Positions 16,791 to 64,000 of a DNA stretch of 64,000 nucleotides are shown here, piece after piece. The number at the start of each line of letters is the position of its first letter. The first letter of the stretch is position 1. The notes beneath the pieces were generated by a model. The model was not told where the DNA came from. It was given only the letters and a program-made list of their open reading frames with translations, and did not search any database. The position numbers were made by a program, and so were the translations under genes. This DNA comes from Lutibacter sp. (GTDB lineage: Bacteria; Bacteroidota; Bacteroidia; Flavobacteriales; Flavobacteriaceae). The stretch lies in the NCBI GenBank assembly GCA_027449025.1, contig DAIDMK010000014.1, positions 27 to 64,026 on the forward strand, given 5' to 3'.

Positions 16791-18218
16791 TTATTTCAAA
16801 TAATTCCGAATTCCATAACTTGCTAAAACACCTTCTCCTGTTGCAGCAGCAACTTGTGCAATGGCACCTTCTCTACAGTCTCCAGCAGCAAATATACCAC
16901 CAACAGATGTTTGTGCTAATCCTGTAGTTTTTATAAATCCTCTTTCATCAAGGTTTATAACTCCCTTAAAAGATTTTGTATTTGGAATTAATCCAATAAA
17001 AATAAATACACCATCTGCCTCTAAAACAGCTTCTTCATGTGTAGTATTATCCTTTATTTTTAAACCGTTAAATAATCCTTTTTCATTTGAAAGAAACTCC
17101 AATGAAGTTTTATTCATATAGGTTGAAATATTCTCGATAGATTTCAATTTTTCTACATACGTTTCTGATGCCGTAAATTCTTGAGATCTATGTACAATTT
17201 TTACACTTTTACAAAAACCTGCTAAAAAGATCCCTTCTTCCAATGCTGAATTTCCACCACCTACAACAATAATATCTTTATCTCTATAAAAAGCACCATC
17301 GCAAGTGGCACAGAAATGAATTCCAGAACCTATCAATGCTTCTTCATTAGGAATATTTAATTTTCTATACGTAGAACCTGTAGATAAAACCACTGTTTTG
17401 CCTAAATACGAGGTGCTTTTTGTTTGTATTGAAAACAAATCTTTTTGCTTTTCTATGGAAACAACTTCTTCCCCCGTTTTAATTACGGCTCCATAAGTTA
17501 TTGCTTGCTCTTCCATTTTCTCCATTAATTTTGGACCAGAAATGGATTGAAATCCTGGATAATTTTCTATTTTTTCTGTTAAAAATGCGTTCCCTCCTAT
17601 GGTAGATTTTTCTAGTATTAAGCTATCAAAACGATCTCTTTGTGCATAAATAGCTGTTGTTAATCCAGCTGCTCCTCCACCAATAATAATGGTATCAAAA
17701 ATTTTATGTTGTTTCTCTATGTTTATTGAAAGCAACTCCGTTAACTTTACATTATCAGGGTTTGTATACGGAATATCATCAATCAATATTGTTGGAATTA
17801 TCCTTTTCCCTTTATTAATTTCTTCAACTTTAGCAGTTGCCCAATCGTATGTATCAACATCAATAAAGTCGAAATTAATGCCATTATCTCTTAAAAAACT
17901 TTTTGCTCTTCTACAATCTGGACACCAATCGGCTCCAAATAATTGTACGTTTCCAACTTCATTTATGCCTAAAATAGCTGCTAATTCAATATTATCTGGG
18001 TTTGTGTACGATTTATTTTTAATAATAACGGTTGGAATGATACGTTTCCCATTATTAATGGCTTCCACTTTTGCTGTTGCCTCTTTATCTAAATCTACGT
18101 CTACAAAAGTAAAATCGACATTATTTTCTTTTAAATATGCTTTTGCTCTTCTGCAATCTGGACACCAATCGGCACCATACAATAAAATTTCATTCATAAG
18201 TTTTAGTGTTTTATTCAA
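16791..18218 (-). CDS. Fusion protein: two N-terminal glutaredoxin-like domains (CPDC each) plus a thioredoxin-reductase-like flavoprotein
   Basis: Tandem repeats GADWCPDCRRAK...GKRIIPT...YTNPDN (x2), then the FAD motif IIIGGGAAGLTTA, redox centre CATCDG, a second dinucleotide motif VVGGGNSALEEG and a C-terminal FAAGDC motif. Confidence 0.85.
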   Translation of the reverse strand: MNKTLKLMNEILLYGADWCPDCRRAKAYLKENNVDFTFVDVDLDKEATAKVEAINNGKRIIPTVIIKNKSYTNPDNIELAAILGINEVGNVQLFGADWCPDCRRAKSFLRDNGINFDFIDVDTYDWATAKVEEINKGKRIIPTILIDDIPYTNPDNVKLTELLSINIEKQHKIFDTIIIGGGAAGLTTAIYAQRDRFDSLILEKSTIGGNAFLTEKIENYPGFQSISGPKLMEKMEEQAITYGAVIKTGEEVVSIEKQKDLFSIQTKSTSYLGKTVVLSTGSTYRKLNIPNEEALIGSGIHFCATCDGAFYRDKDIIVVGGGNSALEEGIFLAGFCKSVKIVHRSQEFTASETYVEKLKSIENISTYMNKTSLEFLSNEKGLFNGLKIKDNTTHEEAVLEADGVFIFIGLIPNTKSFKGVINLDERGFIKTTGLAQTSVGGIFAAGDCREGAIAQVAAATGEGVLASYGIRNYLK

Positions 18219-18406
18219 TTTTAATCTTAGACGTTAAATTTAACAAGTACTTACTCGCCTCTTCAAGTGATTCCTATTTTCAAAAAGTTAAATCAATTTA
18301 TATATAATTATGATAGCCTTTGTTTATGCTATACAAGGTGAACTATATGTAAAGTGAATTGCGGAATAGATTTCTAACAACTATATTTGATATTAAAATA
18401 ATAATT

Positions 18407-49393: not shown

Positions 49394-50176
49394 TTGAAAA
49401 GGAAAATCAGCATATTGGGTTGTGGTTGGCTGGGTAAACCATTGGCTCTAAGTTTAATTGAACAAGGCTATCAAATTAAAGGCTCCACTACTTCTGTAGC
49501 CAAACTTGACGAATTTCAAGAAATGGGAATAAGTCCATTTTTAATTAATCTTGACTCTTTAACACACAATATTCTAGCATTTTTAGATTCGGAAATTTTA
49601 ATTGTGGCATTGCCTTCTAAAGATCTTGAAGGTTTTAGAAATTTAATTAGCCACATTGAAAATTCTTCTTTAAAAAAAATTATTTTCATCAGTTCCACTT
49701 CGGTTTATGGAAATTCAGATGAAATGATTACAGAAGAAACTGAAACACTGCCTTCAGCATTAACAGCCATTGAAATGTTATTTAAAAACTCTAGCTATTT
49801 TGAGACTACCATCATCCGTTTTGCAGGTTTGTTTGGTTATAACAGAAAACCAGGTAATTTTTTTAAAAACGGACGAAAAATACCAAATCCAGATGGTTTT
49901 GTTAATATGATTCATCAAGACGATTGCATTCAGCTTATTGAAAAAGTTATTAAAAAAAATGCCTGGAATCAAATTTTTAATGGCTGCGCCGACACGCACC
50001 CAACAAGAAGGGAATTTTATACCAAATCAACTTTAGATATCGAACTTGAATTACCTGATTTTGAAGAAAATACAGAAATACAACAAAAAATTATATCCAA
50101 CAAAAAATCCAAAGAATTATTGGGTTTTGAGTATAAATATGGAGATTTATTAAGGTTGGATTATAATAAACTATAA
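49394..50176 (+). CDS. NAD(P)-binding Rossmann-fold oxidoreductase/epimerase-like protein
   Basis: N-terminal ILGCGWLG dinucleotide motif. TTG start, since there is no in-frame ATG after the upstream stop. Confidence 0.7.
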   Translation: MKRKISILGCGWLGKPLALSLIEQGYQIKGSTTSVAKLDEFQEMGISPFLINLDSLTHNILAFLDSEILIVALPSKDLEGFRNLISHIENSSLKKIIFISSTSVYGNSDEMITEETETLPSALTAIEMLFKNSSYFETTIIRFAGLFGYNRKPGNFFKNGRKIPNPDGFVNMIHQDDCIQLIEKVIKKNAWNQIFNGCADTHPTRREFYTKSTLDIELELPDFEENTEIQQKIISNKKSKELLGFEYKYGDLLRLDYNKL

Positions 50177-52732: not shown

Positions 52733-52757
52733 AAAAAAAGGAAGTGTAAAACTTCTG
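52733..52757 (-). terminator. Rho-independent terminator closing the exported-protein array
   Basis: The minus-sense sequence reads GAAGT-TTTAC-ACTTC followed by a T-run (A7 on the plus strand at 52733-52739). Confidence 0.6.
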
Positions 52758-52846
52758 CCTCTGATATAGATATTACTCTAAAATTACAAAATTTAAATTT
52801 GACTACAAAATATTATATTTGAACCATCATATCACTTTGTTGCTAC

Positions 52847-53443
52847 TTACAAATCATTTGGTGGAATAGGGCTAGGTACAATGTTTTTTATTGGTTTAAC
52901 AGTTTTAAAAAATTCAAACATAGCTCTTAAGTCACTGTCTGTTAAATTCTTGAAATTTTGCCAAGGCATTGGAGGTAATAACATCCTTTGATCTTTAAGA
53001 CCTTTATATTTACCTTCTCTTAATGCCGTTTTGAAATTATCAAAAGTCCAATTCCCTATTCCTGTTTCGTGTGGTGTTAAATTTGCTCCATAAGACACGC
53101 CCCAAGGTCCAACAAAAGTCGTTAAACTATTATTCATTAAAATCCATTTCCCAGGACCAATATTGTTTTTATCTATTGTGTATAATGGTTCATCACTTGG
53201 ATGACCACTAAAACGTCTGTCTAGATCAGGAATCGGACCTTGAGGTGTCATTTTTTTTGGAGAATGGCAATCATCACATCCTATTGAATTTACTAAGTAT
53301 GCACCTCTCTCAATTATTTCTTGGAGGGTATCAATAGTTTTATACTGTTCATTTTGATTTAAACTTACGCTATTTTTGTCTTTGCAATTTGTAAAAAGTA
53401 TAATAGCCGTAAGACAGAAAGCATAAAAGATTATTTTTTTCAT
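52847..53443 (-). CDS. Monoheme c-type cytochrome, lipoprotein
   Basis: Lipobox LFTNC, a single CXXCH (CDDCH), and a distal Met candidate in PPMPW. Confidence 0.8.
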   Translation of the reverse strand: MKKIIFYAFCLTAIILFTNCKDKNSVSLNQNEQYKTIDTLQEIIERGAYLVNSIGCDDCHSPKKMTPQGPIPDLDRRFSGHPSDEPLYTIDKNNIGPGKWILMNNSLTTFVGPWGVSYGANLTPHETGIGNWTFDNFKTALREGKYKGLKDQRMLLPPMPWQNFKNLTDSDLRAMFEFFKTVKPIKNIVPSPIPPNDL

Positions 53444-53641
53444 TTTGATAAAATTTAAAGTTAATACGCCCTTAATAATTTATTACTTATGTAATATTTG
53501 CTTTTAAACATTATTTACCAACGCTATTTTCCGCAAATCATAATATATCCTATCTGAACATCCTTTTTTGACAAAATAAATAGTTCAAATACTGAGGAAG
53601 TCTTTTGATAGAAATCCTTAGTGGTATCATCAAATTTTAAT

Positions 53642-54169
53642 CTATTTTACTTTAGCGTCACTGTTATAAATATCCCTGATACATCTAAATTTTCCATTAC
53701 GTTTTTCCCAAATAGCCATATATTTTCCTGTTCTAATTACTTTACCCGATGCGTCTTTAGCTATCGCTGTGCCAATCTCAGTAACTATATTCCCATCACC
53801 AAATACCTCAAGTGCGTTATAAGAAACCGTTTCACCTTTAGCTTTCTTGGCAATATCCTCCTCTATTTCCTTTTGAATGGCCGCTTTTCCTATAGTCATC
53901 GGACCATTATTGGACAAACTAATCGCATCATCAGAATAAAAAGAAAGAACCGTTTTTACATCACGAGCATTATCTGCTGTTGCCCAAGCACTTTCCAAGA
54001 CTTGTATTTCATCTTTTATACCAACCATATCGGTCTTAGCTATTGCTGGTTCTTCCATTGCAGCTGGTTCATTAACAGTTTTTTTATCTGACGGTGAATT
54101 ACACCCAATAGAAAAAAGGGAAATTGCAAGACCTAGTATTGCAAGTTTAAATGAGTTCTTTTTGTTCAT
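53642..54169 (-). CDS. NTF2-like (DUF4440/SnoaL-like) lipoprotein
   Basis: Lipobox FSIGC and an NTF2-like cone pattern (LESAWATADNARDVKTVLSFYSDDA...GKYMAIWEKRNGKFRCIRDIYNSD). Confidence 0.7.
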   Translation of the reverse strand: MNKKNSFKLAILGLAISLFSIGCNSPSDKKTVNEPAAMEEPAIAKTDMVGIKDEIQVLESAWATADNARDVKTVLSFYSDDAISLSNNGPMTIGKAAIQKEIEEDIAKKAKGETVSYNALEVFGDGNIVTEIGTAIAKDASGKVIRTGKYMAIWEKRNGKFRCIRDIYNSDAKVK

Positions 54170-54260
54170 TTTCTTAAAATTTAATTTTTTGTCTACACGA
54201 TTCGGTTTTTGACTTAGCCTATTTTTAGTTTACATTTTTTTTGAAATAGGCATTCTAAAT

Positions 54261-54897
54261 TTATTTATTCGCCGCATCTGCAAGCTGCTTCGTATCAACA
54301 TATTGCTGAAAACCTACAACCTTGCCGTCTTTAAGTGTCCAATGATGTGCAACCTGAGCGTCGAAGATGGCCCCATTCTTTTTTAATTTTCCCTGATATC
54401 GTAAGGTAGCAAGCACCTGGTTGTTAGACATTTCATGCAATACTATATCTGTTAATTTAAAATAATTCATGGTCTGCGCCAATTCTTGCAAAAACACCAT
54501 TTAAAACAGCATCTGGTCCTATGTAAGGATTCCCATCAGCATAGGCATTTCCCTCTGCCTCATTCCAAACGATATTCGCATCCATTGTAGCCAGAACCGC
54601 AGGAATATCGCCGATAGCAAATGCTTTGTAGGCGCCATCAATGATATTTAAATTTGTGGGAGTTTTATTATTTACAGACTTTTCTAAAGAAGGTATATTA
54701 AAAAGATAGGCTGTATCACTTTCCTTGAATATCCTATATTTGGTCACTTTATAGCCTTGTCCGTAAACATTATCCGATGTACTTACTGTATTATAAGTAA
54801 ATGTTGAATTGATTGATTTTTCATTAGTTTGACTTATTACATTACTTGTTAAAGCAAATAATAAAAGAATTACGAAGAAAATTTTAATTGTTTTCAT
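54261..54897 (-). pseudogene. SnoaL/NTF2-like exported protein split by a +1 frameshift
   Basis: ORFs 54457..54897 and 54261..54500 overlap. They join as ...GVFARIGADHE(L)FKLTDIVLHE... if one T of the T4 run (plus-strand A4 at 54459-54462) is removed. Confidence 0.7.
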
Positions 54898-55015
54898 GAT
54901 TATTTTTTTAAGACGTTTTTCTATTTATAAAGAAATTCCTAAAAAAGAATTGTGGATTTGTAAATTGGATTCTATTTTTAGGAGTTTCAGGATTAAAAGT
55001 ATTCACTATAATATT

Positions 55016-55798
55016 TTAACGCACTTTTTTTATAAGTGTAGCCATATATTTATATTTCAAATCTCGCGTAGCGACTCCTTCTTTAAATTTTTGTATTTGT
55101 TCATTTGATAATGCAGGTAAATTTGTCGCGCCACCTTTAAATAGTTGATTATAATCTTTATACATATCCGCAGTTATATGTGAAGCATAAACATCACTTC
55201 CCACTGGCAATATATATCGCATCAAGCCCCAATTACCTCTAGCCCCAGCATCAACCTCCTTTTGGGCCATAGGTTGGAAAATTTCGGTTTCAAATTTTTC
55301 ATATTTATCATAATTTTCATCAGACACTTTCATTAAATTTATTCCGGCAATTGTTCCCAAAGGCATCTCAAAATTATCTTTTGTGGCGGCTATTTGCTCT
55401 AAAAAAACGCGAACGGCCAAATCTCTGGATTTTGAGGTGCTCATAAATTTTTTATTAAGCTCTTCCTTGGTCATTTTAGGATAGGCGGTTTTTAAGGCTG
55501 CCTCAAAATCTCCTGTACCGCTCAGCATTTTTACTGGATCATTATACAGTGTTACAGTTAAGTATTGAAATCCTTGATCTTCACCTCCCGGTTGGAGGCT
55601 CCAAAGATCCCATCCTAAAATATCACCATTTTTAGTTCTTTGTTCATGTATTTTTTCCCAAAATGATTCCGTTTCCATATAAGCGGCTTCTTGCTCATTG
55701 TCAACTTTCATAAATTCGAATATTAAATAGAGTTTGTCTTGTGCAACAACAGTGTTACCCAACAAGATTATTGCGATTAGCATTAGTAATTTTTTCAA
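55016..55798 (-). CDS. Exported protein built from two tandem alpha+beta (ferredoxin-like/dimeric-barrel-like) modules
   Basis: Signal peptide ...NTVVAQ. Internal duplication: LIFEFMKVDNEQEAAYMETESFWEKIHEQRTKNGDILGWDLW against GINLMKVSDENYDKYEKFETEIFQPMAQKEVDAGARGNWGLM. Confidence 0.6.
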   Translation of the reverse strand: MKKLLMLIAIILLGNTVVAQDKLYLIFEFMKVDNEQEAAYMETESFWEKIHEQRTKNGDILGWDLWSLQPGGEDQGFQYLTVTLYNDPVKMLSGTGDFEAALKTAYPKMTKEELNKKFMSTSKSRDLAVRVFLEQIAATKDNFEMPLGTIAGINLMKVSDENYDKYEKFETEIFQPMAQKEVDAGARGNWGLMRYILPVGSDVYASHITADMYKDYNQLFKGGATNLPALSNEQIQKFKEGVATRDLKYKYMATLIKKVR

Positions 55799-55845
55799 AA
55801 CTTTAAATATTTAGTTAGTTTATTGGTTTTATGTTGATTAAAAAA

Positions 55846-56355
55846 TTATTCTGTTTCAGCAGCCATTTTTGATGCGGTTTCAGTTTCCTGAATTGCCAAA
55901 ACAATTGGTGTATTGTCCCAATAACCGTATTCTCTTACAATTTTACCATCAATAAACTGTGCCGTTAAATGAACTGGGATTTCAATTTCTTTATTATTCG
56001 CGGCCAATGTACCTTTCCAAGTACCCCAAAAGTTAACCCAAGTCTTTCCATCATCGGTTACTACCATTTCATATTCCTGGCCATTTTCAACAAAACCTCT
56101 TGAAGAAAATACTGTTTCGTTATTTTGATGAAACTCAGGAATTTTATTGGCCTTCATTGGAACAGAAGTATTAAAAAATACGTTTGTAGTGTCCGCATAA
56201 TGAGATACCAATGATTTCCAGTTCTGGTTGCTGTAATCTTTAATTCCTGCCTTATACGTTTCAATTTCTGGTGATTGTTGCGTGTAACGTTCTGGTTTTG
56301 TGCTACAGGATGTAAATAGAACTATTGCAAGTCCCAATAAAATTAGTTTTTTCAT
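55846..56355 (-). CDS. NTF2/SnoaL-like lipoprotein
   Basis: Lipobox LFTSC and a C-terminal pattern IPVHLTAQFIDGKIVREYGYWDN. It is a clear paralog of 57923..58427. Confidence 0.7.
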   Translation of the reverse strand: MKKLILLGLAIVLFTSCSTKPERYTQQSPEIETYKAGIKDYSNQNWKSLVSHYADTTNVFFNTSVPMKANKIPEFHQNNETVFSSRGFVENGQEYEMVVTDDGKTWVNFWGTWKGTLAANNKEIEIPVHLTAQFIDGKIVREYGYWDNTPIVLAIQETETASKMAAETE

Positions 56356-56389
56356 CAGTTTTGTTTTTAGTTAGTAATTTTTGATAATA

Positions 56390-56866
56390 TTAATTTTTCA
56401 TTTCAACCCTAATCAAGCGAATGGAAATTGTTTTGCTTAAATTTTTAACGGAATGTGGTGCTTCCGCATCTTTCCACATGGTCATTGGAAATTTAAGGGG
56501 AGGTTTTATTTGCCGGGAATCCATAATGATATTGCCATCGCCATCATAATCTATAAAGTCGCCTGCCTCTTGAATGTAAAGGACACTTGGCCAACGGTGG
56601 TTGTGAACTTCCTCAGTTTCACCAGGTGAAAGAGTGACTTCCAAAACACGTACCTTTCCATTCTCCATTAAAATCTTATGGTTATCTGGTGCCGCAATAA
56701 CAGCATCTAAATTTGCCGGCCAATTATTTAATTCAACCAAATTATGTGGATCTACGGAATTATAAGCATATGTTTGGTTTGCTATTTTCTTGTTTTCCTG
56801 ACTGAAAGCCAGGTTCATAGAAGTTAATAAAATTAGAATTGCGAGATGCCATTTAATTTTTTTCAT
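56390..56866 (-). CDS. Exported cupin-domain protein
   Basis: Signal peptide ...LAFSQ and a cupin motif region (VLEVTLSPGETEEVHNHRWPSVLYI). Confidence 0.65.
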   Translation of the reverse strand: MKKIKWHLAILILLTSMNLAFSQENKKIANQTYAYNSVDPHNLVELNNWPANLDAVIAAPDNHKILMENGKVRVLEVTLSPGETEEVHNHRWPSVLYIQEAGDFIDYDGDGNIIMDSRQIKPPLKFPMTMWKDAEAPHSVKNLSKTISIRLIRVEMKN

Positions 56867-56910
56867 AATGAATAGATTATAAATGAATTTCTAGTTATGC
56901 TTTTTACGAA

Positions 56911-57840
56911 TTAATTCTGTAAAAACCCGATAGCAGGTTCAAAAGAAATACCCAATTCACAGGTTGCCTTTGCATTTTGATAGATAATTTTCGCCTTGTT
57001 TTTTGGCGGTTTGTTATTAAGTAGTAAGCTGATATCGGAAACCGGATAGCTTTCACTGCTTAATAGATAATTTTTACCATGAATGCCAAAAATGGTTGCT
57101 GCTTTATAAACGGCTTGAGCCACATCATTTACATCCACCATTGCAAATTCCACATCTTGCTTATAAATCATTTCAATAAATGGATTTGTCACAAGTTTAT
57201 TTTTAAACAAAAACTGTAATTCTACAGATGTTGAATCATTTCTTTTTGACAAGGCTTTACCCATTACGGCAACAGGAGATACCGTTGTGATTTCAAATTC
57301 TAAATAAGGATTGGTTTTTATAAAGTTTTCAACCGTTTTATTGGCGATAAATTTTGCCTGTGCATAAGGATGACCTTCTTCACTAAAAAAAGGTGTGTCA
57401 TTTTCACTAAAGGTGTCTTGTGGTGTTTTTCCTCCTGCCGGAAGCGGAAAATTGGTATTGTATGCAGCTACTGAGGCAACAAGCACCACTTTTTTTATTG
57501 TTTTTGATTTACTCACAACTTGTAAAAAGTTTTTTGTACCCATTATGGTTGGATTAAACAGTTCTTTTTGTGGGTTTTTCACATCCAATTTAAATGGCGT
57601 TCCACAATGAATAATAATTTCACAATCATGAGCGAATTTTTTTAATGTTTTAATGTTTTCAACATTTAACTCAGCCCATTTAATATTTTTGGAATTCTTT
57701 AAACCCAACAAATGTTGATGTTTCTCTGTTTTAAAAATATCAGTGACTGAAACTTTTACAATATAATTTTCTTCTAAAAACTTTTTAGTGATATAGCTTC
57801 CAATAAAACCCGAACCACCTATAATACCTATCTTTTTCAT
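56911..57840 (-). CDS. NAD(P)-dependent SDR/epimerase-family reductase (aldehyde or flavonol reductase-like), cytoplasmic
   Basis: GGSGFIGS dinucleotide motif at the N-terminus, catalytic YAQAK, and no signal peptide. Confidence 0.8.
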   Translation of the reverse strand: MKKIGIIGGSGFIGSYITKKFLEENYIVKVSVTDIFKTEKHQHLLGLKNSKNIKWAELNVENIKTLKKFAHDCEIIIHCGTPFKLDVKNPQKELFNPTIMGTKNFLQVVSKSKTIKKVVLVASVAAYNTNFPLPAGGKTPQDTFSENDTPFFSEEGHPYAQAKFIANKTVENFIKTNPYLEFEITTVSPVAVMGKALSKRNDSTSVELQFLFKNKLVTNPFIEMIYKQDVEFAMVDVNDVAQAVYKAATIFGIHGKNYLLSSESYPVSDISLLLNNKPPKNKAKIIYQNAKATCELGISFEPAIGFLQN

Positions 57841-57922
57841 ATATTTTATTAATTAAACTGCCCACACTTAAAATTTAAAATGAACAGATGTGTTTGGTTT
57901 ATTTAATCTTTTAGGTCTTTCT

Positions 57923-58427
57923 TTATATTTCTGGTGGAATAGCCTCTTCAAGTTGTTTTAATGCCAATAGTAAAGGGGAGTTATCCCAATAGCCAAATTC
58001 TTTAACTATTTTTCCATCAATAAACTGGGCAGTTAAATGAACAGGAATTTCATATAATTGGTTATTGGCTTTGAGTCTGCCTTGCCACAATCCCCAAAAA
58101 TTAACCCAAGTTTCTCCTTTATCTGTAACTACCATTTCATATTCCGATTCATCAGGAACATAATTATAAGAAGATAAAATTGCGATACCTTCTTTATTTA
58201 GAGCGATGCCCTGTGCTACTGTCAATGCATTTTTTTTCAGTAGTATTATATACAATTTTTGCAGTATCGGCATAATGAGTTGCATAAGATTCCCAGTTTC
58301 CCATCTCATAATCTTTCACAACCTGTTTGTATTTTGCTATTTCCGGTGAATTTTGAGTATAACGTACTTCGTATTTACAAGCTGTTACTGTAGTGATTGA
58401 AAGCAGAATGAGCATTATTTTTTTCAT
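57923..58427 (-). pseudogene. NTF2/SnoaL-like lipoprotein paralog split by a frameshift in an A8 run
   Basis: ORF 58194..58427 gives the lipobox VTAC and YTQNSPEIAKYK. ORF 57923..58309 gives ...SEYEMVVTDKGETWVNFWG...IPVHLTAQFIDGKIVKEFGYWDN. The frames join if the run at 58230-58237 is A7. Confidence 0.75.
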
Positions 58428-58529
58428 ATGTAAATATTTATTATTTTTTATTGGTCATATGTAATGCGCATATTTTCATAGGTGATTGTATCGTGTTTGC
58501 GTTATGCACATTTCATCATTTTGGTGTTT

Positions 58530-58567
58530 AAATTCGGGTACGACCATATCAAATCATACCCGAATTT
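58530..58567. other. Strong hairpin: 11-bp perfect stem with a 16-nt loop
   Basis: AAATTCGGGTA (58530-58540) pairs with TACCCGAATTT (58557-58567). It sits in the 165-bp gap inside the array, with no adjacent U-tract on either strand. Confidence 0.6.
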
Positions 58568-58592
58568 GGTTTAGCTAGTAGTGAATTGTTAA

Positions 58593-59354
58593 TTATTTTA
58601 ATGCTGAATATGATAAGTCATAACGCATGCCTCCAGTCTTGCTTTCATATTTATAAACATATTTAAACATGTCTTCAAAAAGCTTCTTTCCTTCCTCTCC
58701 TAATAAAGCATCATTTTCATCACTTTGTCTAGCATAGTCCTGAGCGTCCTTTGCCGATACCACCGCTAAATAATAATCACCCATAGTGCCAAATCCGGCG
58801 CGGTAAATTCTAAAGTATTCTTTAGCACCTTTTTTCTCATAAAGCGCTTTAAGTTCTTTTATTTTTCCTCTTAAATTTTGAACATTTTCTGGTGTTACGT
58901 ATAAAAAATGCCATTTGCGATAATTTTGTCCTTCAGTATTTATGGTTAGTCCATTTGGCATGTAGGAGAGTTCACTGTTTAAAATCACAATATAATCACC
59001 ATGTTTATCGTAACACTTGTTAAAGCGTTCAAAAATGGCTCTAAAGTTTTCATCTCCCATTTTTTCTGCCAATGGTGCCAAAGTATTTTTATCTAGATCT
59101 CCCATATTTTTGATTGGTGTAATACTTAAATAAGTTCCATCGTCTATTTGGGCAGTTGACCAATCAGCATCTTTTAAATTATGTTTTTTGCAGGCTGCAA
59201 TAAAGTCTTTACTAACTTTTTCATATTCGCCAGTCATTGACGGTTTTACTTGGTCTGCATGAATCCAAAAGGCTTGATTGCCTTGTGCATTTGAAATTGT
59301 TGGAACTAGCAATAATATTATTGCCAACAGCATTGTCATTTTTAATTTTTTCAT
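58593..59354 (-). CDS. Exported two-module alpha+beta protein (second member)
   Basis: Signal peptide ...TISNAQ. Module 1 is FWIHADQVKPSMTGEYEKVSKDFIAACKKH... and module 2 is WHFLYVTPENVQNLRGKIKELKALYEKKG.... Confidence 0.55.
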   Translation of the reverse strand: MKKLKMTMLLAIILLLVPTISNAQGNQAFWIHADQVKPSMTGEYEKVSKDFIAACKKHNLKDADWSTAQIDDGTYLSITPIKNMGDLDKNTLAPLAEKMGDENFRAIFERFNKCYDKHGDYIVILNSELSYMPNGLTINTEGQNYRKWHFLYVTPENVQNLRGKIKELKALYEKKGAKEYFRIYRAGFGTMGDYYLAVVSAKDAQDYARQSDENDALLGEEGKKLFEDMFKYVYKYESKTGGMRYDLSYSALK

Positions 59355-59367
59355 TATTGTTGTTTTT

Positions 59368-60090
59368 TTAATTACTTAATTCTGTATTTAGCAAGTACAA
59401 ATATGACCATGAACTTTTAACAGATGCAATGGCTTTTGCTCTCAAATTATCTGTTTTTTTCTTTCCATTTATATTTTCATATATTTTCCAAACACCATCT
59501 TTGGAAATATCTAAATCAGCATAACCTTTATACTGCATAGAAATCATATAATCAGGTGAATCAGGTCCACCTCCCATAAAATCATACCAAGTGCCTCGAG
59601 GCGTACCTTCTACTGTTCTAAGTGTAGATCCTATCTCTTTAATTACCTCTATAAAATCGTTGCTATTTTCTACGCTAAAAAAACTGACCCAAACCAATTT
59701 AGTACCTTCCGAAGGCTTTGTTTTACTAACTTCTGGCATGGTGCGGGCGATGTTATAATTTACTTTTTCAATGTGAGGCAAAACAAAATCAACCAGTTTC
59801 ATACGGCATTCTTTTCCGGCTTCATCTTCTTTGTCCATTTCAGCCCAGTTATCTATCATGCCTGTTAGTACATACATAATACCTTCTCCTTGTACACGTC
59901 TCCAAAAATTAAATTTGTCGGTCCCTTTTTTTTCCAGATAGCATTCTTTCCACAATTTTACACCTGCGATAAATTGAGATTCGTGACCAGATTTTACAGT
60001 AATTTCAGTCATGTTCAATAGCTTACTAACATCATTTTGTGAAATCGCCAACATTGGAATAAATACTGCCAGTAATAATATTTTTTTCAT
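59368..60090 (-). CDS. Exported two-module alpha+beta protein (third member)
   Basis: Signal peptide ...MLAISQ. Module 1 is MTEITVKSGHESQFIAGVKLWKECYLEK... and module 2 is LVWVSFFSVENSNDFIEVIKEIGSTL.... Confidence 0.55.
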   Translation of the reverse strand: MKKILLLAVFIPMLAISQNDVSKLLNMTEITVKSGHESQFIAGVKLWKECYLEKKGTDKFNFWRRVQGEGIMYVLTGMIDNWAEMDKEDEAGKECRMKLVDFVLPHIEKVNYNIARTMPEVSKTKPSEGTKLVWVSFFSVENSNDFIEVIKEIGSTLRTVEGTPRGTWYDFMGGGPDSPDYMISMQYKGYADLDISKDGVWKIYENINGKKKTDNLRAKAIASVKSSWSYLYLLNTELSN

Positions 60091-60120
60091 GATAATAAAT
60101 TTTTAGATAGTTGGTTGTTC

Positions 60121-60128
60121 CAAAATTA
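60121..60128 (-). promoter_or_regulatory. Candidate -7 box (minus-sense TAATTTTG) for the first gene of the array
   Basis: Matches TAnnTTTG and lies 31 nt upstream of the ATG at 60090. Confidence 0.35.
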
Positions 60129-60162
60129 AGCAGTGTAATTCAGAAAAATTTGCACATTTATT

Positions 60163-60200
60163 GCAAAAACATGGATTTTTACGGCAAAAATCAATGGATT
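60163..60200 (-). promoter_or_regulatory. Direct repeats (minus-sense AATCCAT-n-TTTTTGC, x2) with 21-23 bp period; candidate AraC-type HTCS binding site
   Basis: On the plus strand, GCAAAAACATGGATT lies at 60163-60177 and GCAAAAATCAATGGATT at 60184-60200. A third ATGGATT lies at 60232-60238. The repeats sit 35-75 nt upstream of the -7 box. Confidence 0.35.
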
Positions 60201-60242
60201 AACTAATTAAATAGCCATTTTGTACTTAATGATGGATTTGAG

Positions 60243-63200
60243 CTATGATAAATGAGATATGTTGTTCTTTTTGTAGGTAGATGGACTACAGCCAAATTGA
60301 TTTTTAAAAACTCTTGAAAAATAAGCTTGATCATTAAATCCTGTTTGAAAGCAAATATCTGCCAAACTTCCAGTGTTTAGCTTGATTAAATCTGCCGCAC
60401 GTTGCAGTCGAATATTACGAATTAATTGACCTGGCGCATGATCGATGAGCGCTTGAAGCTTTCTGTGTAACTGTGATGTACTTAAACACATTTCACTAGC
60501 GAGCAGCTCCACACTAAAATTTGTGTTTTCTATATTATCTTTTATATGTTGTATCGTTTTTTCTAAAAACTGTTGATCAACAGATCCCAACGGAATTTCT
60601 TCAGAAGAAACCACAAATTTATTTTGATATTTTTCGCGGAGTTGCGCTCTTTGCTGAATGAGATTATTGATAATAATTTGAAGTTCTTTTACACTAAAAG
60701 GTTTGGTTAAATACGCATCAATACCAGCTTCTAACCCAATCAATTTATCTTCAAGAGTTGCTTTGCCCGATAGAATAATAATAGGAATATGACTTGTTTT
60801 TTCATCATCCCTCAACATTTGCACCATTGAAACTCCATCAAGTTTTGGCATCATCACATCTGTAATAATTAAATCAGGAATAAACTTTTTGGCTTGTTCA
60901 ATCCCCTCTTCACCATTATTGGCTTCAATAATTCTATAAGTTGATTGCAATAAATCCTTTATAAAAGTTCTTATGGCCAAATTGTCTTCCACCAATACAA
61001 TAATCTTTTTGTCGAAGTTTATATCAGGAATTTTAAGTTTATTATTTTGATTAGATATAAGGTCATCAGAGGTCGGGTTTTCTATTTCGATTTTATTTTC
61101 AACGCTTTTTTCAGAAATAGAACCAATTGGAAGGTCAATTGAAATTGTTATTCCCTTTTGCCCTGTTAGCTCTTCATTTCTATAAGCCTTTACGGTTCCT
61201 TCATGCAATTTCACCAATTCTTTCACCAAAGCTAATCCTATACCAGTTCCCTCATACAATCGGGTGTCTGAATTGTCTGTTTGATAAAAACGGTCAAATA
61301 TGTATGGAATGGCATCCTTTTCAATGCCAATTCCGTTATCACAAATACAAATGGAAATATGTTTATTGGCTTTTTGTCGGATTGTTAAATTAATTTCTCC
61401 ACCCTTTGGTGTGAATTTTAACGCATTTGACATAATATTCATAACAATCCTTTCCATTTTTTCAGCGTCAAAGACAACTTGAATATCCTTCTCATCAGAA
61501 ATAAAATTGAGGGAAATTTTCCTTTTTTCAGTAAATGACTCCAAAGAAAAAAATAAATTTTTTAAGTAAAGAACAATATTTTGTTGAGAAAGTTTTAAAG
61601 CCATTTTTCCCGCTTCCAATTTAGAAATGTCCAAGAGTTCATTTATTAATTTTAAAAGTGTTTTTGCGTTATTATTAATGCCTGCTACTTGTTTTTTTGA
61701 ATAATTAGGTGGCAATCCTTCCATCAAATTTTCCGCATACCCGCTAATTAATGTTAAAGGCGTTCTAAATTCGTGAGAAATGTTGGTAAAAAAACGAGAT
61801 TTTAACTGATCAATGACCTTTAAAGTATTGTATTCTTTTTGTTCAAACTCAAGATTATTCTTCATTTCAATCCGTTTCATTTCATATCTCCTGACAAAAA
61901 ACATTAAGAGGACAAAAAGAAATAAATAACTAGAGTATGCCCACCAGGTCCCCGACCAATGTGGTAAAACCTGAATAGGAATTGAAATACTTTCCTCATT
62001 CCAAACACCATCATTATTGCTTCCTTTTACTTTTAAGGTATAATTTCCTGAAGGTAAATGCGTAAATGTAGCGGTTCTGGAATTATCTATATAAATCCAA
62101 TTTTCATTAAAATTTTCAAGCATATAAGCATATTTATTTTTGCCTGGTGAAGAAAAATCAAGTGCTGAAAATTCAAATATGATAATCTCGTCACGATGTG
62201 TAAAAGTGATTGCTTCATTTGGTTTAACAAGCAATTCTTTAACTTCAATTCCTTCATTATTTTTTTTATTCTGACTGTATACTTTTATCCCAGTGATACT
62301 TATTGGAGGTTGAAACGGATTGTCTTTAATTTGATCAGGAAAAAAATAGTTAAGACCATTTATACCGCCAAAAAATAATTCGCCTTTTGAACTTTTAAAA
62401 ACGGCACCAGTGTTAAATTCATTGCTTTGCAACCCATCATCCACATCATAATTTCTGAATTTTTTTGTTTTCAAGTTGTATTTTGAAATTCCTTTATTGG
62501 TGCTTAGCCATAAATTATCTTGCGAATCTGATGAAATTCCATAAATTAAATTGTTAGGGAGTCCATCATTTTTGGTGAAATGAGTGAACGACTGTTTGTT
62601 GGTATCAAATAAATTTAATCCACTAGAAGTGCCAATCCATAAAAAACCTTCAGGTTTTACAGGATCAGAAAATATGGCATTTACTTGATTGTTGCTTAAA
62701 CTGTTTGATATTTCGGGATTGTTTTGGTAACGGTAAAAAAGCTCCTTCTCTTTATCAAAAACCAGTAAACCATTTTTAGTTCCCAACCACAATTGATTTT
62801 TGTAATCTTCGTACACAGTACAGTATCCTATCGAATTATTTGTCGGATAATCGGGATATTGATATTGTTTAAATTTCCCCTTTTCCTGATCAACCATTTT
62901 GCCCAAAAAGTTATCTGTTACTATCCAAATGAAACCGTTCTTATCTTCAAAAACTGTTGCAACCCCTTTATGTGGAATTGTGCTAGGACTGATACTGTCA
63001 TATTTGAATTGTCGTGCTCTTTCAATTTTCGGATCATATACAAACAATCCTTCTGTTGAGGCAAACCACAATTTGCCGTTTTTGGATTTAATCATTGACC
63101 GTATACTTGTATTACCAAAGGCGTTCAAATTTGTTGAGTTTGTTTCAAAACTTTTAAGTTCGCCAGTTTTTCTATCCCACCGATAGAGAACTTCCGCACT

Positions 63201-63998
63201 AATCCAAACATATTGGTCACTTTCTTCTAAAATTGCACGAATGCTGAAACCTGTTACCCTTGAATTGATGGCAACTTTTCGTTTTAACAAGCCAAACCTA
63301 TTGGATTTTGAATCGTAATAATCAATTCCCATTCCGCTTGTACCAACCCATAATATATTTGTACGGTCAAAAAATAAACTTGAGATACTGTTATAGCTAA
63401 TCGATTCAGTCTTTAGCGGATCATTTTTAACAGATTCATATTTAAATGTTTTTAAGTCAAAACGCATCAACTCTCCGGGAGTTGCCAACCATAAACTACC
63501 ACGTTTGTCTTGCACAATTTCATTAATTTCTCCCCATCCATATCTAAAAATGCTCAAGTGATGCGGAAATACTTTGTATGATTTGTCGATGGTGTTAAAT
63601 TTAACCAATCCGCTTCGCGTGCCAAACCATAAATTATCATTGTCGGCTTTACTGATGGCAGAAATAGAAAAATCAGTATCACTTCTCGGCGCATTTGGGT
63701 GCTTTACATTAAAATAAAAAGAAGAAATTGTTGTTGTTTTGGGATCCATTCGGTTCAGTCCTTTATCGGTTCCAATCCAAATAGCTCCTTTTTCATCAAT
63801 AAGAATTTTTTTTATAATATTGCTACAGAGATTAAACTGCCCAGATTTATCATTATAGTACTGTTTTATTTTAGTTGAATCATATTGCTTGTTCAAAAAA
63901 GGGATTCTAAAAATGCCGCTTCCAATTGTTCCTATCCAAAAATCACCTGTTTTATCTTGAGCTATGGCATTAATTACATCAGTATTTTTACTTTTCAA
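60243..63998 (-). CDS. Hybrid two-component system sensor kinase/response regulator with AraC-type HTH output (HTCS); N-terminus lies outside the window
   Basis: Repeated beta-propeller sensor modules (WIGT..GL, LWLGT..GL motifs), a Y_Y_Y-like region, a TM segment (WWAYSSYLFLFVLLMFFV), the H-box SHEFRTPLT, an HATPase (GTGIGLALV), a REC domain (VLVEDN...ITDVMMPKLDG) and a C-terminal AraC HTH (FNDQAYFSRVFKNQFGCSPS). The ORF is still open at the window edge. Confidence 0.9.
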   Translation of the reverse strand: MKSKNTDVINAIAQDKTGDFWIGTIGSGIFRIPFLNKQYDSTKIKQYYNDKSGQFNLCSNIIKKILIDEKGAIWIGTDKGLNRMDPKTTTISSFYFNVKHPNAPRSDTDFSISAISKADNDNLWFGTRSGLVKFNTIDKSYKVFPHHLSIFRYGWGEINEIVQDKRGSLWLATPGELMRFDLKTFKYESVKNDPLKTESISYNSISSLFFDRTNILWVGTSGMGIDYYDSKSNRFGLLKRKVAINSRVTGFSIRAILEESDQYVWISAEVLYRWDRKTGELKSFETNSTNLNAFGNTSIRSMIKSKNGKLWFASTEGLFVYDPKIERARQFKYDSISPSTIPHKGVATVFEDKNGFIWIVTDNFLGKMVDQEKGKFKQYQYPDYPTNNSIGYCTVYEDYKNQLWLGTKNGLLVFDKEKELFYRYQNNPEISNSLSNNQVNAIFSDPVKPEGFLWIGTSSGLNLFDTNKQSFTHFTKNDGLPNNLIYGISSDSQDNLWLSTNKGISKYNLKTKKFRNYDVDDGLQSNEFNTGAVFKSSKGELFFGGINGLNYFFPDQIKDNPFQPPISITGIKVYSQNKKNNEGIEVKELLVKPNEAITFTHRDEIIIFEFSALDFSSPGKNKYAYMLENFNENWIYIDNSRTATFTHLPSGNYTLKVKGSNNDGVWNEESISIPIQVLPHWSGTWWAYSSYLFLFVLLMFFVRRYEMKRIEMKNNLEFEQKEYNTLKVIDQLKSRFFTNISHEFRTPLTLISGYAENLMEGLPPNYSKKQVAGINNNAKTLLKLINELLDISKLEAGKMALKLSQQNIVLYLKNLFFSLESFTEKRKISLNFISDEKDIQVVFDAEKMERIVMNIMSNALKFTPKGGEINLTIRQKANKHISICICDNGIGIEKDAIPYIFDRFYQTDNSDTRLYEGTGIGLALVKELVKLHEGTVKAYRNEELTGQKGITISIDLPIGSISEKSVENKIEIENPTSDDLISNQNNKLKIPDINFDKKIIVLVEDNLAIRTFIKDLLQSTYRIIEANNGEEGIEQAKKFIPDLIITDVMMPKLDGVSMVQMLRDDEKTSHIPIIILSGKATLEDKLIGLEAGIDAYLTKPFSVKELQIIINNLIQQRAQLREKYQNKFVVSSEEIPLGSVDQQFLEKTIQHIKDNIENTNFSVELLASEMCLSTSQLHRKLQALIDHAPGQLIRNIRLQRAADLIKLNTGSLADICFQTGFNDQAYFSRVFKNQFGCSPSTYKKNNISHLS

Positions 63999-64000
63999 AT

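Follow-up and report, generated by a model that had tools for sequence, protein, structure and literature searches.

Hybrid sensor-regulators of the HTCS type usually have the role of switching on sugar-harvesting genes. In the window, the 64,000-nucleotide stretch of Lutibacter sp. DNA analysed here, one such regulator lies directly upstream of an array of ten short genes (g1 to g10), all on the minus strand, and the question arises of what it controls. An earlier note on this DNA had described this arrangement, and all eleven genes lie where it placed them. Comparative sequence analysis makes it somewhat probable that the array forms an inducible operon whose products would make up a small-molecule module in the periplasm, controlled by an HTCS lineage that would be dedicated to such operons and not to polysaccharide utilisation loci (PUL). 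A literature search found no paper describing this array.

The Regulator and Its Surroundings

The HTCS gene (60243..63998, minus strand) runs beyond the window edge at its N-terminus, and its orthologues measure 1376-1378 aa. Pfam domains follow the order Reg_prop repeats, Y_Y_Y, HisKA, HATPase_c, Response_reg and HTH_18/AraC, with a TM segment C-terminal to Y_Y_Y and the Reg_prop/Y_Y_Y sensor part in the periplasm. In this architecture it is a canonical HTCS of the Reg_prop/YYY kind. Outside Bacteroidota, Reg_prop/YYY sensors 30-37% identical to it carry SpoIIE, GGDEF, cyclase or Ser/Thr kinase outputs, so the sensor module is not PUL-specific.

No SusC/D or CAZyme gene was found in the window, where the HTCS is the only ORF above 900 aa. 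A scan of ten further window ORFs (260-820 aa) gave nine that encode housekeeping or ordinary cellular proteins and one (49394-50176) with no Pfam match. Beyond position 64000, a side that the earlier note could not see, the absence of SusC/D was checked in the closest relative locus (L002, 87-98% identical). There the far side of the HTCS is occupied by housekeeping genes for LpxA, EF-P, LpxD and SucD, and the upstream genes also include one for a thioredoxin-like and one for a CarboxypepD_reg protein.

Co-Conservation of Sensor and Array

The same pattern extends across the clade. In about 20 loci, from genomes and metagenome contigs, HTCS of this clade are followed by such arrays and never by a PUL; the flanks, covered to about 6-10 kb in each direction, contain no SusC/D or CAZyme gene. 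The HTCS stands directly upstream of g1 in Lutibacter-like loci as well as in L053 (65% HTCS identity) and L072 (64%), and co-conservation holds down to 49% sensor identity. Four sensor relatives (P0243-P0246, 49-56% identity) are each followed by an array of DUF4440, SnoaL_2, RidA, cupin, VOC, YceI and MFS genes, including orthologues of g1, g3/g6, g5, g8 and g9. Among further relatives, the P0255 sensor precedes a Flavodoxin_2 gene (azoreductase/quinone-reductase type) and P0254 a g4-like SDR gene.

Candidate Operator, Promoter and Terminator

A candidate HTCS operator, AAAATCCATGTTTTTGCAATAAATGTGCAA (60150..60179, minus strand), was recognised by phylogenetic footprinting and fits the pattern AAARTMC-N6-TTGM-N7-RTRCAA. 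It comprises two AAAGTSC-like half-sites 21 bp apart, and a further TGCCGT repeat prolongs the element to 60186. The window contains one match against 0.08 expected. Exactly one match per locus is found in 18 loci, each in the gap that separates the HTCS gene from the first gene of the array; the pattern was derived partly from loci in which it was counted, with L005, L006 and L072 as independent recoveries. All matching loci carry the HTCS, while the 70 non-matching loci take in every locus lacking an HTCS of this clade, together with a few HTCS loci (L004, L010 and L053) in which the exact pattern is missed by one base. Within 1.4 Mb of fetched loci, the element occurs only in front of the array. 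This direct repeat is a clade-specific, operator-like candidate HTCS site.

About 22 nt downstream of the repeat, a putative -7 promoter box was read from the sequence, TAATTTTG (60121..60128, minus strand), at a distance of 30 nt from the ATG of g1 on its upstream side. It conforms to TAnnTTTG, the Bacteroidetes -7 consensus, and related loci show TAGTTTTG, TAATTTTG, TACTTTTG or TACATTTG in its place. At the other end of the gene run, the hairpin and T-run reported earlier are present as a terminator-like structure (GAAGU/ACUUC plus U7, 52733..52757, minus strand), but it is weak (core stem of 5 bp, then T7; -9.4 kcal/mol, z = -2.1) and a terminator scanner made no call.

The earlier proposal that the HTCS controls the array is therefore supported at the sequence level from both sides, since sensor and array are co-conserved and a clade-specific operator-like element fronts the first array gene. 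The HTCS-array link and the candidate operator are new results from comparative genomics.

These data also bear on a glycan-based reading, according to which the HTCS senses an oligosaccharide (for instance, of algal origin) and the array is accessory to a dispersed response, with SusC/D and CAZymes elsewhere in the genome. To our knowledge, every Reg_prop/YYY HTCS of known ligand binds oligosaccharides, and the window represents only 64 kb of the genome. A glycan-derived signal is, by analogy, possible. Nevertheless, the PUL-free neighbourhoods of the clade, the confinement of the candidate operator to the array, the non-HTCS outputs of related sensors and the use of other sensors for the same array (see below) make this explanation of the locus quite unlikely. 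What this sensor lineage regulates seems not to be the use of glycans.

The Array Proteins

Pfam, profile and Foldseek searches upheld the fold inventory first made by motif reading: three tandem ferredoxin-like (ABM-like) proteins, four NTF2/SnoaL proteins, one cupin, one monohaem cytochrome c and one SDR. Neither Pfam nor NCBIfam holds a model for the three tandem ferredoxin-like families. All ten genes lie on the minus strand, and the base composition of the array is ordinary.

The first gene, g1 (59368..60090), encodes an exported protein of 240 aa and is the most widely conserved of the array. Its AF2 model (pLDDT 87) matches tandem-ABM 'putative monooxygenases' by Foldseek (E 2e-8). An alignment of 20 homologues shows 44 invariant columns, C50, C95 and many polar residues among them, with H36 and H106 nearly invariant (at least 90%). 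The product of g2 (58593..59354; exported, 253 aa) has no Pfam match, has 19 syntenic homologues and is a distant relative of g1 (hhalign probability 91.6%, E 8e-7, in an alignment that includes the signal peptide). The third member, g7 (55016..55798; exported, 260 aa), is 63-98% identical between genera; its top Foldseek matches are the same as those of g1, obtained from a weaker model (pLDDT 65), and the tandem ferredoxin-like fold is assigned to it with moderate confidence.

Among the NTF2/SnoaL proteins, g3 (57923..58427) and g6 (55846..56355; FTSC lipobox, Pfam SnoaL 3.5e-4) are paralogous SnoaL/NTF2-like lipoproteins, whose family profile matches a SnoaL-like 'Hydroxylase' entry (8r20) and AclR (2e-5 to 1e-4). 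An exported SnoaL_2-domain protein is encoded by g8 (54261..54897), and a DUF4440/NTF2-like lipoprotein by g9 (53642..54169; SIGC lipobox, Pfam DUF4440 3e-12, SnoaL_2 1.4e-6), with a lipobox in 16/18 homologues of the latter. The two frameshifts noted earlier, in g3 and g8, are both real here. One extra A lengthens a run in g3 (A8 at 58230-58237, A7 in L002), and g8 carries a single additional base near 54467. In L002 the two orthologues are intact (179 aa for g3; 211 aa for g8, with SnoaL_2 at 3.7e-8).

The exported cupin g5 (56390..56866; profile versus cupin E 0.009), present in 12 loci, carries an HxH..E..H metal-site motif, which shows no variation among 8 homologues. The g10 gene (52847..53443) was found in only 4 loci; it encodes a lipoprotein (FTNC lipobox) that is a monohaem cytochrome c of class I (CDDCH, Pfam Cytochrom_C 1e-4), resembling the first haem domain of the cytochrome subunits of FAD-GDH, ADH and FDH dehydrogenases (6e-20). 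Finally, g4 (56911..57840) encodes a cytoplasmic extended SDR (Pfam Epimerase 2e-17, 3Beta_HSD 7e-14), an NAD(P)H carbonyl reductase whose PDB relatives are of the DFR/ANR/GRE2/CCR type (9e-22).

Export of nine of the ten products, all except the SDR, had been claimed, and their signal peptides or lipoboxes are present and conserved in homologues. Four proteins carry the lipoboxes FTNC, SIGC, FTSC and VTAC; five have SPI signal peptides whose cleavage leaves Gln as the first mature residue (AIS|Q, SNA|Q, AFS|Q, VVA|Q and VIS|Q), as expected from the Bacteroidetes Q-rule (PMC5837995). A heuristic for N-terminal export features was positive in 82/83 members of the g1 family, 94/103 of the SnoaL cluster, 12/12 cupins, 18/18 DUF4440 proteins and 4/4 cytochromes c, against 0/23 SDRs; none of the 23 g4 homologues has a signal peptide. 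Of the two locations first suggested, the cell surface is less likely than the periplasm; the lipoprotein surface export signal, K-(D/E)2 or Q-A-(D/E)2 (PMC5080379), is absent from all four array lipoproteins (0/4).

A Portable and Variable Module

In other genera, the same array is found under TPR-HisKA_2 kinases plus LytTR, or under Reg_prop-YYY-HisKA_3 kinases, and more often than under an HTCS. The HTCS is thus not the defining partner that the earlier note took it for, and the array is a portable functional module. Gene content differs widely from locus to locus, and sister arrays include genes for exported RidA, exported VOC/glyoxalase, alpha/beta-hydrolase lipoproteins, YceI, adh_short and Zn-ADH. 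Such variation suggests a toolbox or detoxification set instead of one fixed linear pathway.

The best reading is that the locus provides an inducible set of periplasmic tools which would deal with a small compound, redox-active or hydrophobic, and would depend little on nucleotide cofactors. A periplasmic signal would activate the HTCS, whose AraC-type domain would bind the repeat element and turn on the array promoter. In the periplasm, the exported proteins may then act as binders or catalysts on a small compound that is hydrophobic, redox-active or electrophilic, most plausibly a quinone, phenolic or carbonyl compound. They would rely only on acid-base catalysis, metal plus O2, oxygenation free of cofactors and electron transfer by haem, chemistries that call for neither a nucleotide cofactor nor ATP. 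Carbonyl species entering the cytoplasm might be reduced by g4, and the lipoprotein cytochrome c, where present, could exchange electrons with the respiratory chain. Against this reading count the lack of a transporter gene in the window's array, the frameshifts in two of its ten genes and the wide differences in gene content between loci.

The array proteins resemble characterised SnoaL, ABM and cupin enzymes at the level of fold only (TM about 0.5, 10-16% identity), so they could be binders instead of enzymes. A different view is that of an envelope or general stress regulon in which non-enzymatic NTF2, Dabb and YceI-type lipid/isoprenoid binders or holdases protect the envelope, induced by membrane-active or envelope stress with no specific compound processed. 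The toolbox-like composition, the YceI genes of sister arrays, the three sensor types driving one array and the membrane acyltransferase (DUF418/HGSNAT, MBOAT) and AmpG-like MFS genes adjoining many loci are in its favour. However, g5 keeps an invariant metal site, and the 44 invariant columns of g1, many of them polar, fit an active or ligand site. RidA and VOC enzymes are co-conserved, as are reductases of the cytoplasm (g4, adh_short, Zn-ADH), and they point to chemistry beyond binding, which leaves a stress regulon rather unlikely.

NTF2-fold immunity proteins of polymorphic toxins exist, and the array might in principle be an immunity set in which NTF2-like and other small exported folds act against periplasm-acting interbacterial toxins, as would be allowed by its variable stock of small genes for exported proteins or lipoproteins, some of them paralogous (g3/g6) and some pseudogenes. 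This is the least probable explanation, given two-component control, a conserved chromosomal position, unremarkable base composition and co-conserved metabolic features (SDR, RidA, VOC, cupin metal site and cytochrome c), with no toxin, T6SS, Rhs or mobile-element genes in the loci examined.

Almost as improbable is a biosynthetic role, in place of detoxification or catabolism, in which the array would tailor one of the cell's own secondary metabolites or pigments in the periplasm. Its appeal lies in the SnoaL, ABM-like, cupin and ketoreductase-type SDR set, which mirrors aromatic polyketide tailoring enzymes in fold. Nonetheless, neither the window ORFs sampled nor the annotated parts of the flanks of 88 loci showed a PKS, NRPS, terpene synthase or other core biosynthetic gene, and regulation through a sensor outside the cytoplasm suggests that the signal is external.

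HTCS Regulator and Absence of a PUL

A hybrid two-component system (HTCS) regulator in a Bacteroidota genome is treated nearly as a marker of a polysaccharide utilisation locus (PUL), in which SusC/SusD accompany carbohydrate-active enzymes (CAZymes). The regulator of this locus is encoded at 60243–63998 on the minus strand, as an open-ended ORF in the ORF listing of 50–64 kb, and its orthologues are 1376–1378 aa long. Pfam searches gave matches to Reg_prop (2e-35), Y_Y_Y (2e-19), HisKA (7e-17) and HATPase_c (1e-25), with Response_reg (2e-23) and the AraC-type HTH_18 (3e-20) in the C-terminal part and a transmembrane segment after Y_Y_Y. Every domain that defines the Bacteroidota HTCS family is present, and the protein is a member of it.

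The locus itself is not a PUL, since neither of the two defining features was found. The HTCS is the sole ORF above 900 aa in the window, and no SusC/D or CAZyme was detected among ten other ORFs scanned (260–820 aa), nine of which encode housekeeping or ordinary cellular proteins, while the tenth (49394–50176) has no Pfam match. The ten short genes downstream of the HTCS (g1–g10) showed no Pfam or NCBIfam match to glycoside hydrolase, lyase or esterase families. For the side beyond position 64000, the closest related locus (L002), with array proteins 84–98% identical, was taken as a stand-in. Upstream of its HTCS lie LpxA, EF-P, LpxD, SucD and a thioredoxin-like gene, with a CarboxypepD_reg-domain protein on the other strand, and these housekeeping genes recur 5´ of the HTCS in other Lutibacter-like loci. 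The earlier note's remark that no SusC/D or glycoside hydrolase was in view therefore holds, and L002 carries housekeeping genes, not SusC/D, in the region corresponding to that beyond 64000. The main refuting condition named in the note, a SusC/D PUL across from the array as the conserved partner of the HTCS, was thus not borne out. SusC/D was likewise absent from the approximately 20 loci inspected on either side, whether reached from the array or from the sensor.

Outside Bacteroidota, more distant relatives of the sensor domain (30–37% identity) are joined to other outputs, namely SpoIIE, GGDEF, cyclase, Ser/Thr kinase or HisKA_3 domains. The Reg_prop/YYY sensor module thus has no intrinsic tie to PULs.

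Gene Content and Predicted Folds of the Array

Following the HTCS on the minus strand, the ten short genes extend from 60090 down to 52847 and are succeeded by Band-7 and FAD-dependent genes. Their closest protein matches are found in Lutibacter metagenome-assembled genomes, at 87% identity in the case of g1. A recently acquired horizontal island was considered and rejected, because the GC content of the array (0.28–0.35) and its skew resemble those of the flanks and the locus is syntenic in relatives. Rfam gave no match over 52–64 kb.

Three of the genes, g1, g2 and g7, probably belong to the tandem dimeric alpha/beta-barrel (ABM-like) fold class, as judged from structural models for g1 and g7 and from a profile alignment for g2. 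The AlphaFold model of g1 (240 aa), built from a 20-sequence alignment (pLDDT 87), comprises two beta-alpha-beta-beta-alpha-beta modules. Foldseek matches at E-values of 2e-8 to 4e-7 include 3f44, 3mcs, 2pgc, 5f9p and 9kdp; of these, 3f44 and 3mcs are "putative monooxygenases" of the tandem ABM type, and 2pgc comes from a marine metagenome. An anthrone-oxidase-like protein and PenE are also among the matches. The model of g7 (260 aa), weaker at pLDDT 65, repeats this order of secondary-structure elements and shares its top matches with g1. For g2 (253 aa), the sole link to the tandem fold is an hhalign probability of 91.6% with g1; the corresponding values are 62% for g1–g7 and 8% for g2–g7. 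BLASTP among the three detected no mutual match, so that they are linked by profile and structure comparison only. The JCSG structures 2pgc, 3mcs and 3f44 are the best structural matches of both g1 and g7 and are themselves tandem ferredoxin-like, at 10–16% identity and with no assigned function on their side either.

A haem-binding role of the Cld/HemQ/DyP type for g1 and g7 was also weighed. HemQ/Cld proteins do appear among the g1 matches (full list E 2e-8 to 1e-6, TM ~0.5), but at fold level alone and ranked below the tandem-ABM structures, and this role was set aside.

None of the three proteins matched a Pfam or NCBIfam model, ABM (PF03992) and NIPSNAP (PF07978) included, although the families of g1, g2 and g7 are common in marine and sediment Flavobacteriaceae. 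An ABM match (1.6e-4) was obtained for one of 52 distant g1-family representatives, and the "NIPSNAP protein" label is found only as the UniRef name of two homologues retrieved in the g1 and g7 searches. Of the three JCSG structures, only 3mcs was also reached by a sequence profile (E 0.11); PDB profile searches with g7 and g2 returned nothing useful. Clustered at 50% identity, the g1 family has approximately 420 representatives; for g7, 674 matches were obtained.

The g7 protein is 63–98% identical across Lutibacter, Gillisia, Salegentibacter, Flavobacterium, Confluentibacter and Gelidibacter, compared with approximately 50–58% between genera for g1; such high conservation points to very strong constraint on g7 or to its horizontal spread. 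In the g1 alignment (A1), C50 and C95 are invariant and located in helices of the first ferredoxin-like module; these residues may form a disulfide, which would be compatible with a periplasmic location.

Four further products, g3, g6, g8 and g9, are assigned by profile to the NTF2-like/SnoaL superfamily. DUF4440 matches g9 above cutoff (3e-12), and the intact orthologue of g8 scores 34.3 bits with SnoaL_2 (cutoff, 27 bits). The paralogous lipoproteins g3 and g6 share a family profile that matches 8r20 (a SnoaL-like "Hydroxylase"), AclR and 3grd at 2e-5 to 3e-4, as well as IdmH and ester cyclases; g6 alone falls below the Pfam cutoff. Cupins are recognised by a His/Glu metal site formed by two motifs, G(X)5HXH(X)3-4E(X)6G followed by H(X)3N. 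The motif of g5, PGETEEVHxHxWPSVLYIQEAGD ... PHSVxN, is invariant in eight homologues (HxH..E..H), with marginal HMM scores (Cupin_2, E 0.076; profile match to the PDB cupin 9u8n, E 0.009).

The CDDCH (CXXCH) motif of g10, its Cytochrom_C score (23.8 bits, cutoff 21.3) and its similarity to the first haem domain of the FAD-GDH, ADH and FDH cytochrome subunits (E 6e-20 to 6e-14) identify it as a predicted class I cytochrome c. Unlike the membrane-bound quinone-reducing dehydrogenases to which the FAD-GDH beta, ADH subunit II and FDH subunit cytochromes belong, g10 is a single-haem lipoprotein of 198 aa with no dehydrogenase subunits nearby. With its GGSGFIGS and YAQAK motifs, Epimerase and 3Beta_HSD matches in Pfam, and DFR, ANR, methylglyoxal reductase and CCR as top PDB relatives, g4 is classified as an extended SDR of the DFR/ANR/GRE2/CCR type and a putative carbonyl reductase. 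Steroid chemistry, which would combine a 3beta-HSD with KSI-like NTF2 proteins, was set aside because the matches are weak and sub-threshold.

The fold inventory read from motifs in the earlier note was thus borne out by HMM, profile and structure comparison, the weakest assignments being the putative cupin (g5) and g2. By these comparisons, the exported products fall into the NTF2-like, cytochrome c and tandem ferredoxin-like fold classes, an assignment to folds that does not demonstrate membership of a characterised enzyme family.

Predicted Export and Localisation

Export was called with an N-terminal heuristic rather than with SignalP, the features sought being a signal peptide and either a Gln at +1 (SPI substrates) or the Cys of a lipobox (SPII substrates). 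Five array products have an SPI-type signal peptide, with all five sites exposing Gln, and four have a lipobox, so these products are predicted to be exported by Sec/SPI or SPII. Gln at +1 of SPI sites corresponds to the Bacteroidetes Q-rule (PMC5837995). Nearly all homologues have matching N-terminal features, and the SDR, adh_short and Zn-ADH homologues have none.

Surface-exposed lipoproteins of Bacteroidota are marked by a LES motif that follows the lipidated Cys closely and reads K-(D/E)2 or Q-A-(D/E)2 (PMC5080379). No such motif was found after the Cys of the four lipoproteins, where the residues are KDKNS (g10), NSPSD (g9), STKPE (g6) and KYEVR (g3). Their absence favours anchoring towards the periplasm: of the two locations previously proposed, periplasmic or cell-surface, the former is now the more likely.

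RidA (Ribonuc_L-PSP) is encoded in the HTCS-linked arrays of six of the genomic loci compared, L004, L009, L012, L053, L083 and L086 (e.g., L053:12405-12911). These homologues are approximately 30 residues longer than cytoplasmic-type copies and have a signal peptide or lipobox. We know of no earlier description of an exported RidA.

Co-Conservation of the Array with Extracytoplasmic Sensors

The arrangement of an HTCS next to this array proved to be real, and their coupling, proposed from a single locus, is now much better supported by neighbourhoods examined from both the array and the sensor sides. From the array side, genomes were searched with the g1 alignment, yielding 79 loci that were analysed by tblastn and de novo clustering. 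An HTCS lies directly 5´ of g1, sharing its strand, in the Lutibacter-like loci. Two further loci have this arrangement, L053 (Flavobacterium sp.) with an HTCS of 65% identity and L072 with one of 64%. Among arrays, g2, g4, g5, g7, g9 and g10 are variably present, g10 in only four. Sister arrays contain additional genes for RidA (some with a signal peptide), exported VOC/glyoxalase, adh_short, Zn-ADH, DUF2306, alpha/beta-hydrolase lipoproteins, AmpG-like MFS and DUF418 proteins.

Other sensors are found in the same position. A TPR-HisKA_2 kinase together with a LytTR response regulator stands before the array genes in Yeosuana, Flavobacterium franklandianum, Salegentibacter and others, with identities to the window of 77–79% for g7, 53–69% for g2, ~60% for g4 and ~50% for g6. 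This pair of regulators seems not to have been characterised, and its signal may be that of the HTCS. The arrangement is found in many Flavobacteriaceae: one or two such kinases and a LytTR regulator precede the array in L001, L018, L019, L024, L027, L028, L058, L067, L081 and L082 (e.g., L081:6324-8969).

In Psychroflexus, Paucihalobacter and Polaribacter, g1 is flanked by a divergently transcribed Reg_prop-YYY-HisKA_3 kinase. This third regulator type, seen at L025:6446-9391, L073:6837-9869, L074:4364-7237 and L075:1201-4275, constitutes a second, independent association of Reg_prop/YYY with the array. These kinases are NarL-type proteins of ~1000 aa with no receiver or AraC domains. Many other genera have g1 and a tandem SnoaL gene with no adjacent regulator. 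The coupling to different extracytoplasmic sensors argues that the array is a portable functional unit.

From the sensor side, the periplasmic sensor domain alone was used as a query and the nearest non-Lutibacter relatives were inspected. Four of them (P0243–P0246, 49–56% identity) each belong to an HTCS, frameshift-split in its assembly, that is followed by small genes, mostly with signal peptides, for DUF4440, SnoaL_2, RidA, cupin, VOC, MoaF-like, YceI and MFS proteins, including clear orthologues of g1, g3/g6, g5, g8 and g9. The next gene is a g4-like SDR in P0254 (49%) and, at the contig end, a Flavodoxin_2 gene (azoreductase/quinone-reductase type) in P0255 (47%). No SusC/D adjoins any of these six relatives. 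An HTCS clade tied to exported small-molecule-fold arrays lacking SusC/D would mean that genome-based PUL and substrate prediction cannot equate HTCS with glycan.

Inside the array of L087, downstream of the first HTCS, there is a second HisKA/HATPase and receiver-AraC pair (L087:16046-18405), 52–56% identical to the cytoplasmic half of the HTCS and with no Reg_prop/YYY part aligned or annotated.

Downstream of g1 in many genera (L031, L044, L063, L069, L079, L080 and others), an MBOAT gene is preceded by one to four tandem paralogues (e.g., L069, ~12.8–19 kb). These paralogues (cluster c3) code for a membrane-anchored protein of 345 aa that Pfam does not recognise and, with the MBOAT gene, are accompanied by DUF418/HGSNAT-like membrane proteins and AmpG/Acatn-like MFS. 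By its gene content, the set looks like a periplasmic O-acylation system.

Candidate Operator and Promoter of the Array

The HTCS–g1 intergenic region contains a strong phylogenetic footprint, generalised as AAARTMC-N6-TTGM-N7-RTRCAA. It consists of two AAAGTSC-like half-sites 21 bp apart, a spacing that would place them on the same helix face. The window contains a single match, at 60150–60179, versus 0.08 expected. Each of 18 loci, the divergent L083, L084, L086, L087 and L088 among them, likewise has one match and no more, in every case located between the HTCS and the first array gene. Some of these 18 loci served to derive the pattern; the matches in L005, L006 and L072, whose contigs start with the HTCS C-terminus, are independent recoveries. 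L008 also matches, on a contig that begins too near the element to show an HTCS. The 70 non-matching loci include every locus without an HTCS of this clade, as well as three HTCS loci that are one base off the pattern (L004, L010 and L053).

Approximately 22 nt downstream of this element and 30 nt before the g1 ATG, at 60121–60128, lies a -7 box TAnnTTTG (TAATTTTG), which we take to be the Bacteroidetes primary-sigma -7 consensus. A sigma-70 promoter/terminator scanner, unsuited to Bacteroidota, gave background-level counts. We infer that the HTCS binds this repeat through its AraC domain. The repeat provides a concrete candidate operator for this domain; to our knowledge, few HTCS AraC-domain operators have been defined so far.

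Proposed Function and Comparison with Known Systems

In the proposed working of the locus, a periplasmic signal would activate the HTCS, its HTH_18 domain would activate the g1 promoter, and the exported proteins would act in the periplasm. The exported families of the arrays (ABM-like, SnoaL/NTF2, cupin, VOC, RidA, alpha/beta-hydrolase and cytochrome c) would work without recycling of NAD(P)H, ATP or flavin, which is what a periplasmic pathway would require, and the NAD(P)H-dependent members (g4, adh_short, Zn-ADH and Flavodoxin_2) have no signal peptides. Such a division is consistent with two compartments sharing the handling of either a small compound of redox-active or electrophilic nature (quinone, phenolic or carbonyl type) or a hydrophobic ligand (YceI, NTF2). 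Given their variable content, the arrays look more like a toolbox or a detoxification set than like a single fixed pathway.

HTCS-regulated PULs, such as BT4663/heparin and BT0366/arabinan in B. thetaiotaomicron, have a regulator of identical architecture that also adjoins its presumed target operon. Unlike them, the ~20 loci examined here have no SusC/D or CAZymes, and the presumed targets are small exported proteins on enzyme folds free of nucleotide cofactors. On the available genomic evidence, this HTCS clade is rated as a candidate for a non-PUL, periplasmic small-molecule regulon.

Aromatic polyketide tailoring uses the same fold classes, namely SnoaL/AclR/SnoaL2 (NTF2), ActVA-Orf6/TcmH/anthrone oxidases (ABM) and TcmJ-type cupins, and both g1 and g7 match tandem-ABM and anthrone-oxidase-like structures, g1 also PenE (E 1e-8 to 1e-6). 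However, the proteins described here are exported, no PKS is present, and at 10–16% identity and TM ~0.5 the likeness is one of fold.

The quinone/electrophile regulons of Firmicutes (MhqR/YodB/QsrR) comprise VOC dioxygenases, azoreductases, esterases and reductases. They share with the arrays inducible, paralogue-rich sets of VOC/glyoxalase, Flavodoxin_2 azoreductase-type, alpha/beta-hydrolase and carbonyl-reductase genes, a resemblance best taken as a lead. They differ in being controlled by a thiol-based cytoplasmic repressor instead of an extracytoplasmic two-component sensor, and the products of the arrays are mostly periplasmic, with NTF2 and tandem-Dabb proteins dominating. If the arrays do act on quinones or phenolics, they would represent periplasmic chemistry independent of nucleotide cofactors, with a bearing on how flavobacteria cope with algal, humic and microbial redox-active compounds.

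A more specific reading, which we consider doubtful though worth stating, is that this Flavobacteriia Reg_prop/YYY HTCS lineage senses a non-carbohydrate signal and, through the direct-repeat operator, would switch on a periplasmic O2/metal/haem route that detoxifies or catabolises quinone/phenolic-type compounds, by means of three exported tandem ferredoxin-like, oxygenase-like families together with NTF2 and cupin enzymes and no nucleotide cofactor. Were this reading true, the locus would represent the first HTCS regulon outside glycan use as well as a new route of detoxification in the periplasm. Searches of open-access full text, where absence is not proof of novelty, found neither this gene set nor a non-PUL HTCS regulon described.

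Frameshifts and Other Features of the Window

Two array genes were previously read as frameshifted, and comparison with L002, in which both are intact, identifies them as g3 and g8. The former is disrupted by an extra A at 58230–58237 (A8 versus A7 in L002), and the latter by one additional base near 54467, at a non-homopolymer site. These may be sequencing errors or recent inactivations. The two single-base frameshifts fall within 11 kb of the window, and in the ENA long-read contigs L083, L084, L086 and L087 the HTCS and neighbouring genes are likewise frameshift-split.

Elsewhere in the window, 16791–18218 on the minus strand encodes a 475-aa protein in which a glutaredoxin/thioredoxin-like domain is fused to a flavoprotein disulfide reductase (Pyr_redox_2). 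The opposite strand has an overlapping ORF of 182 aa (17689–18237) that is probably spurious.
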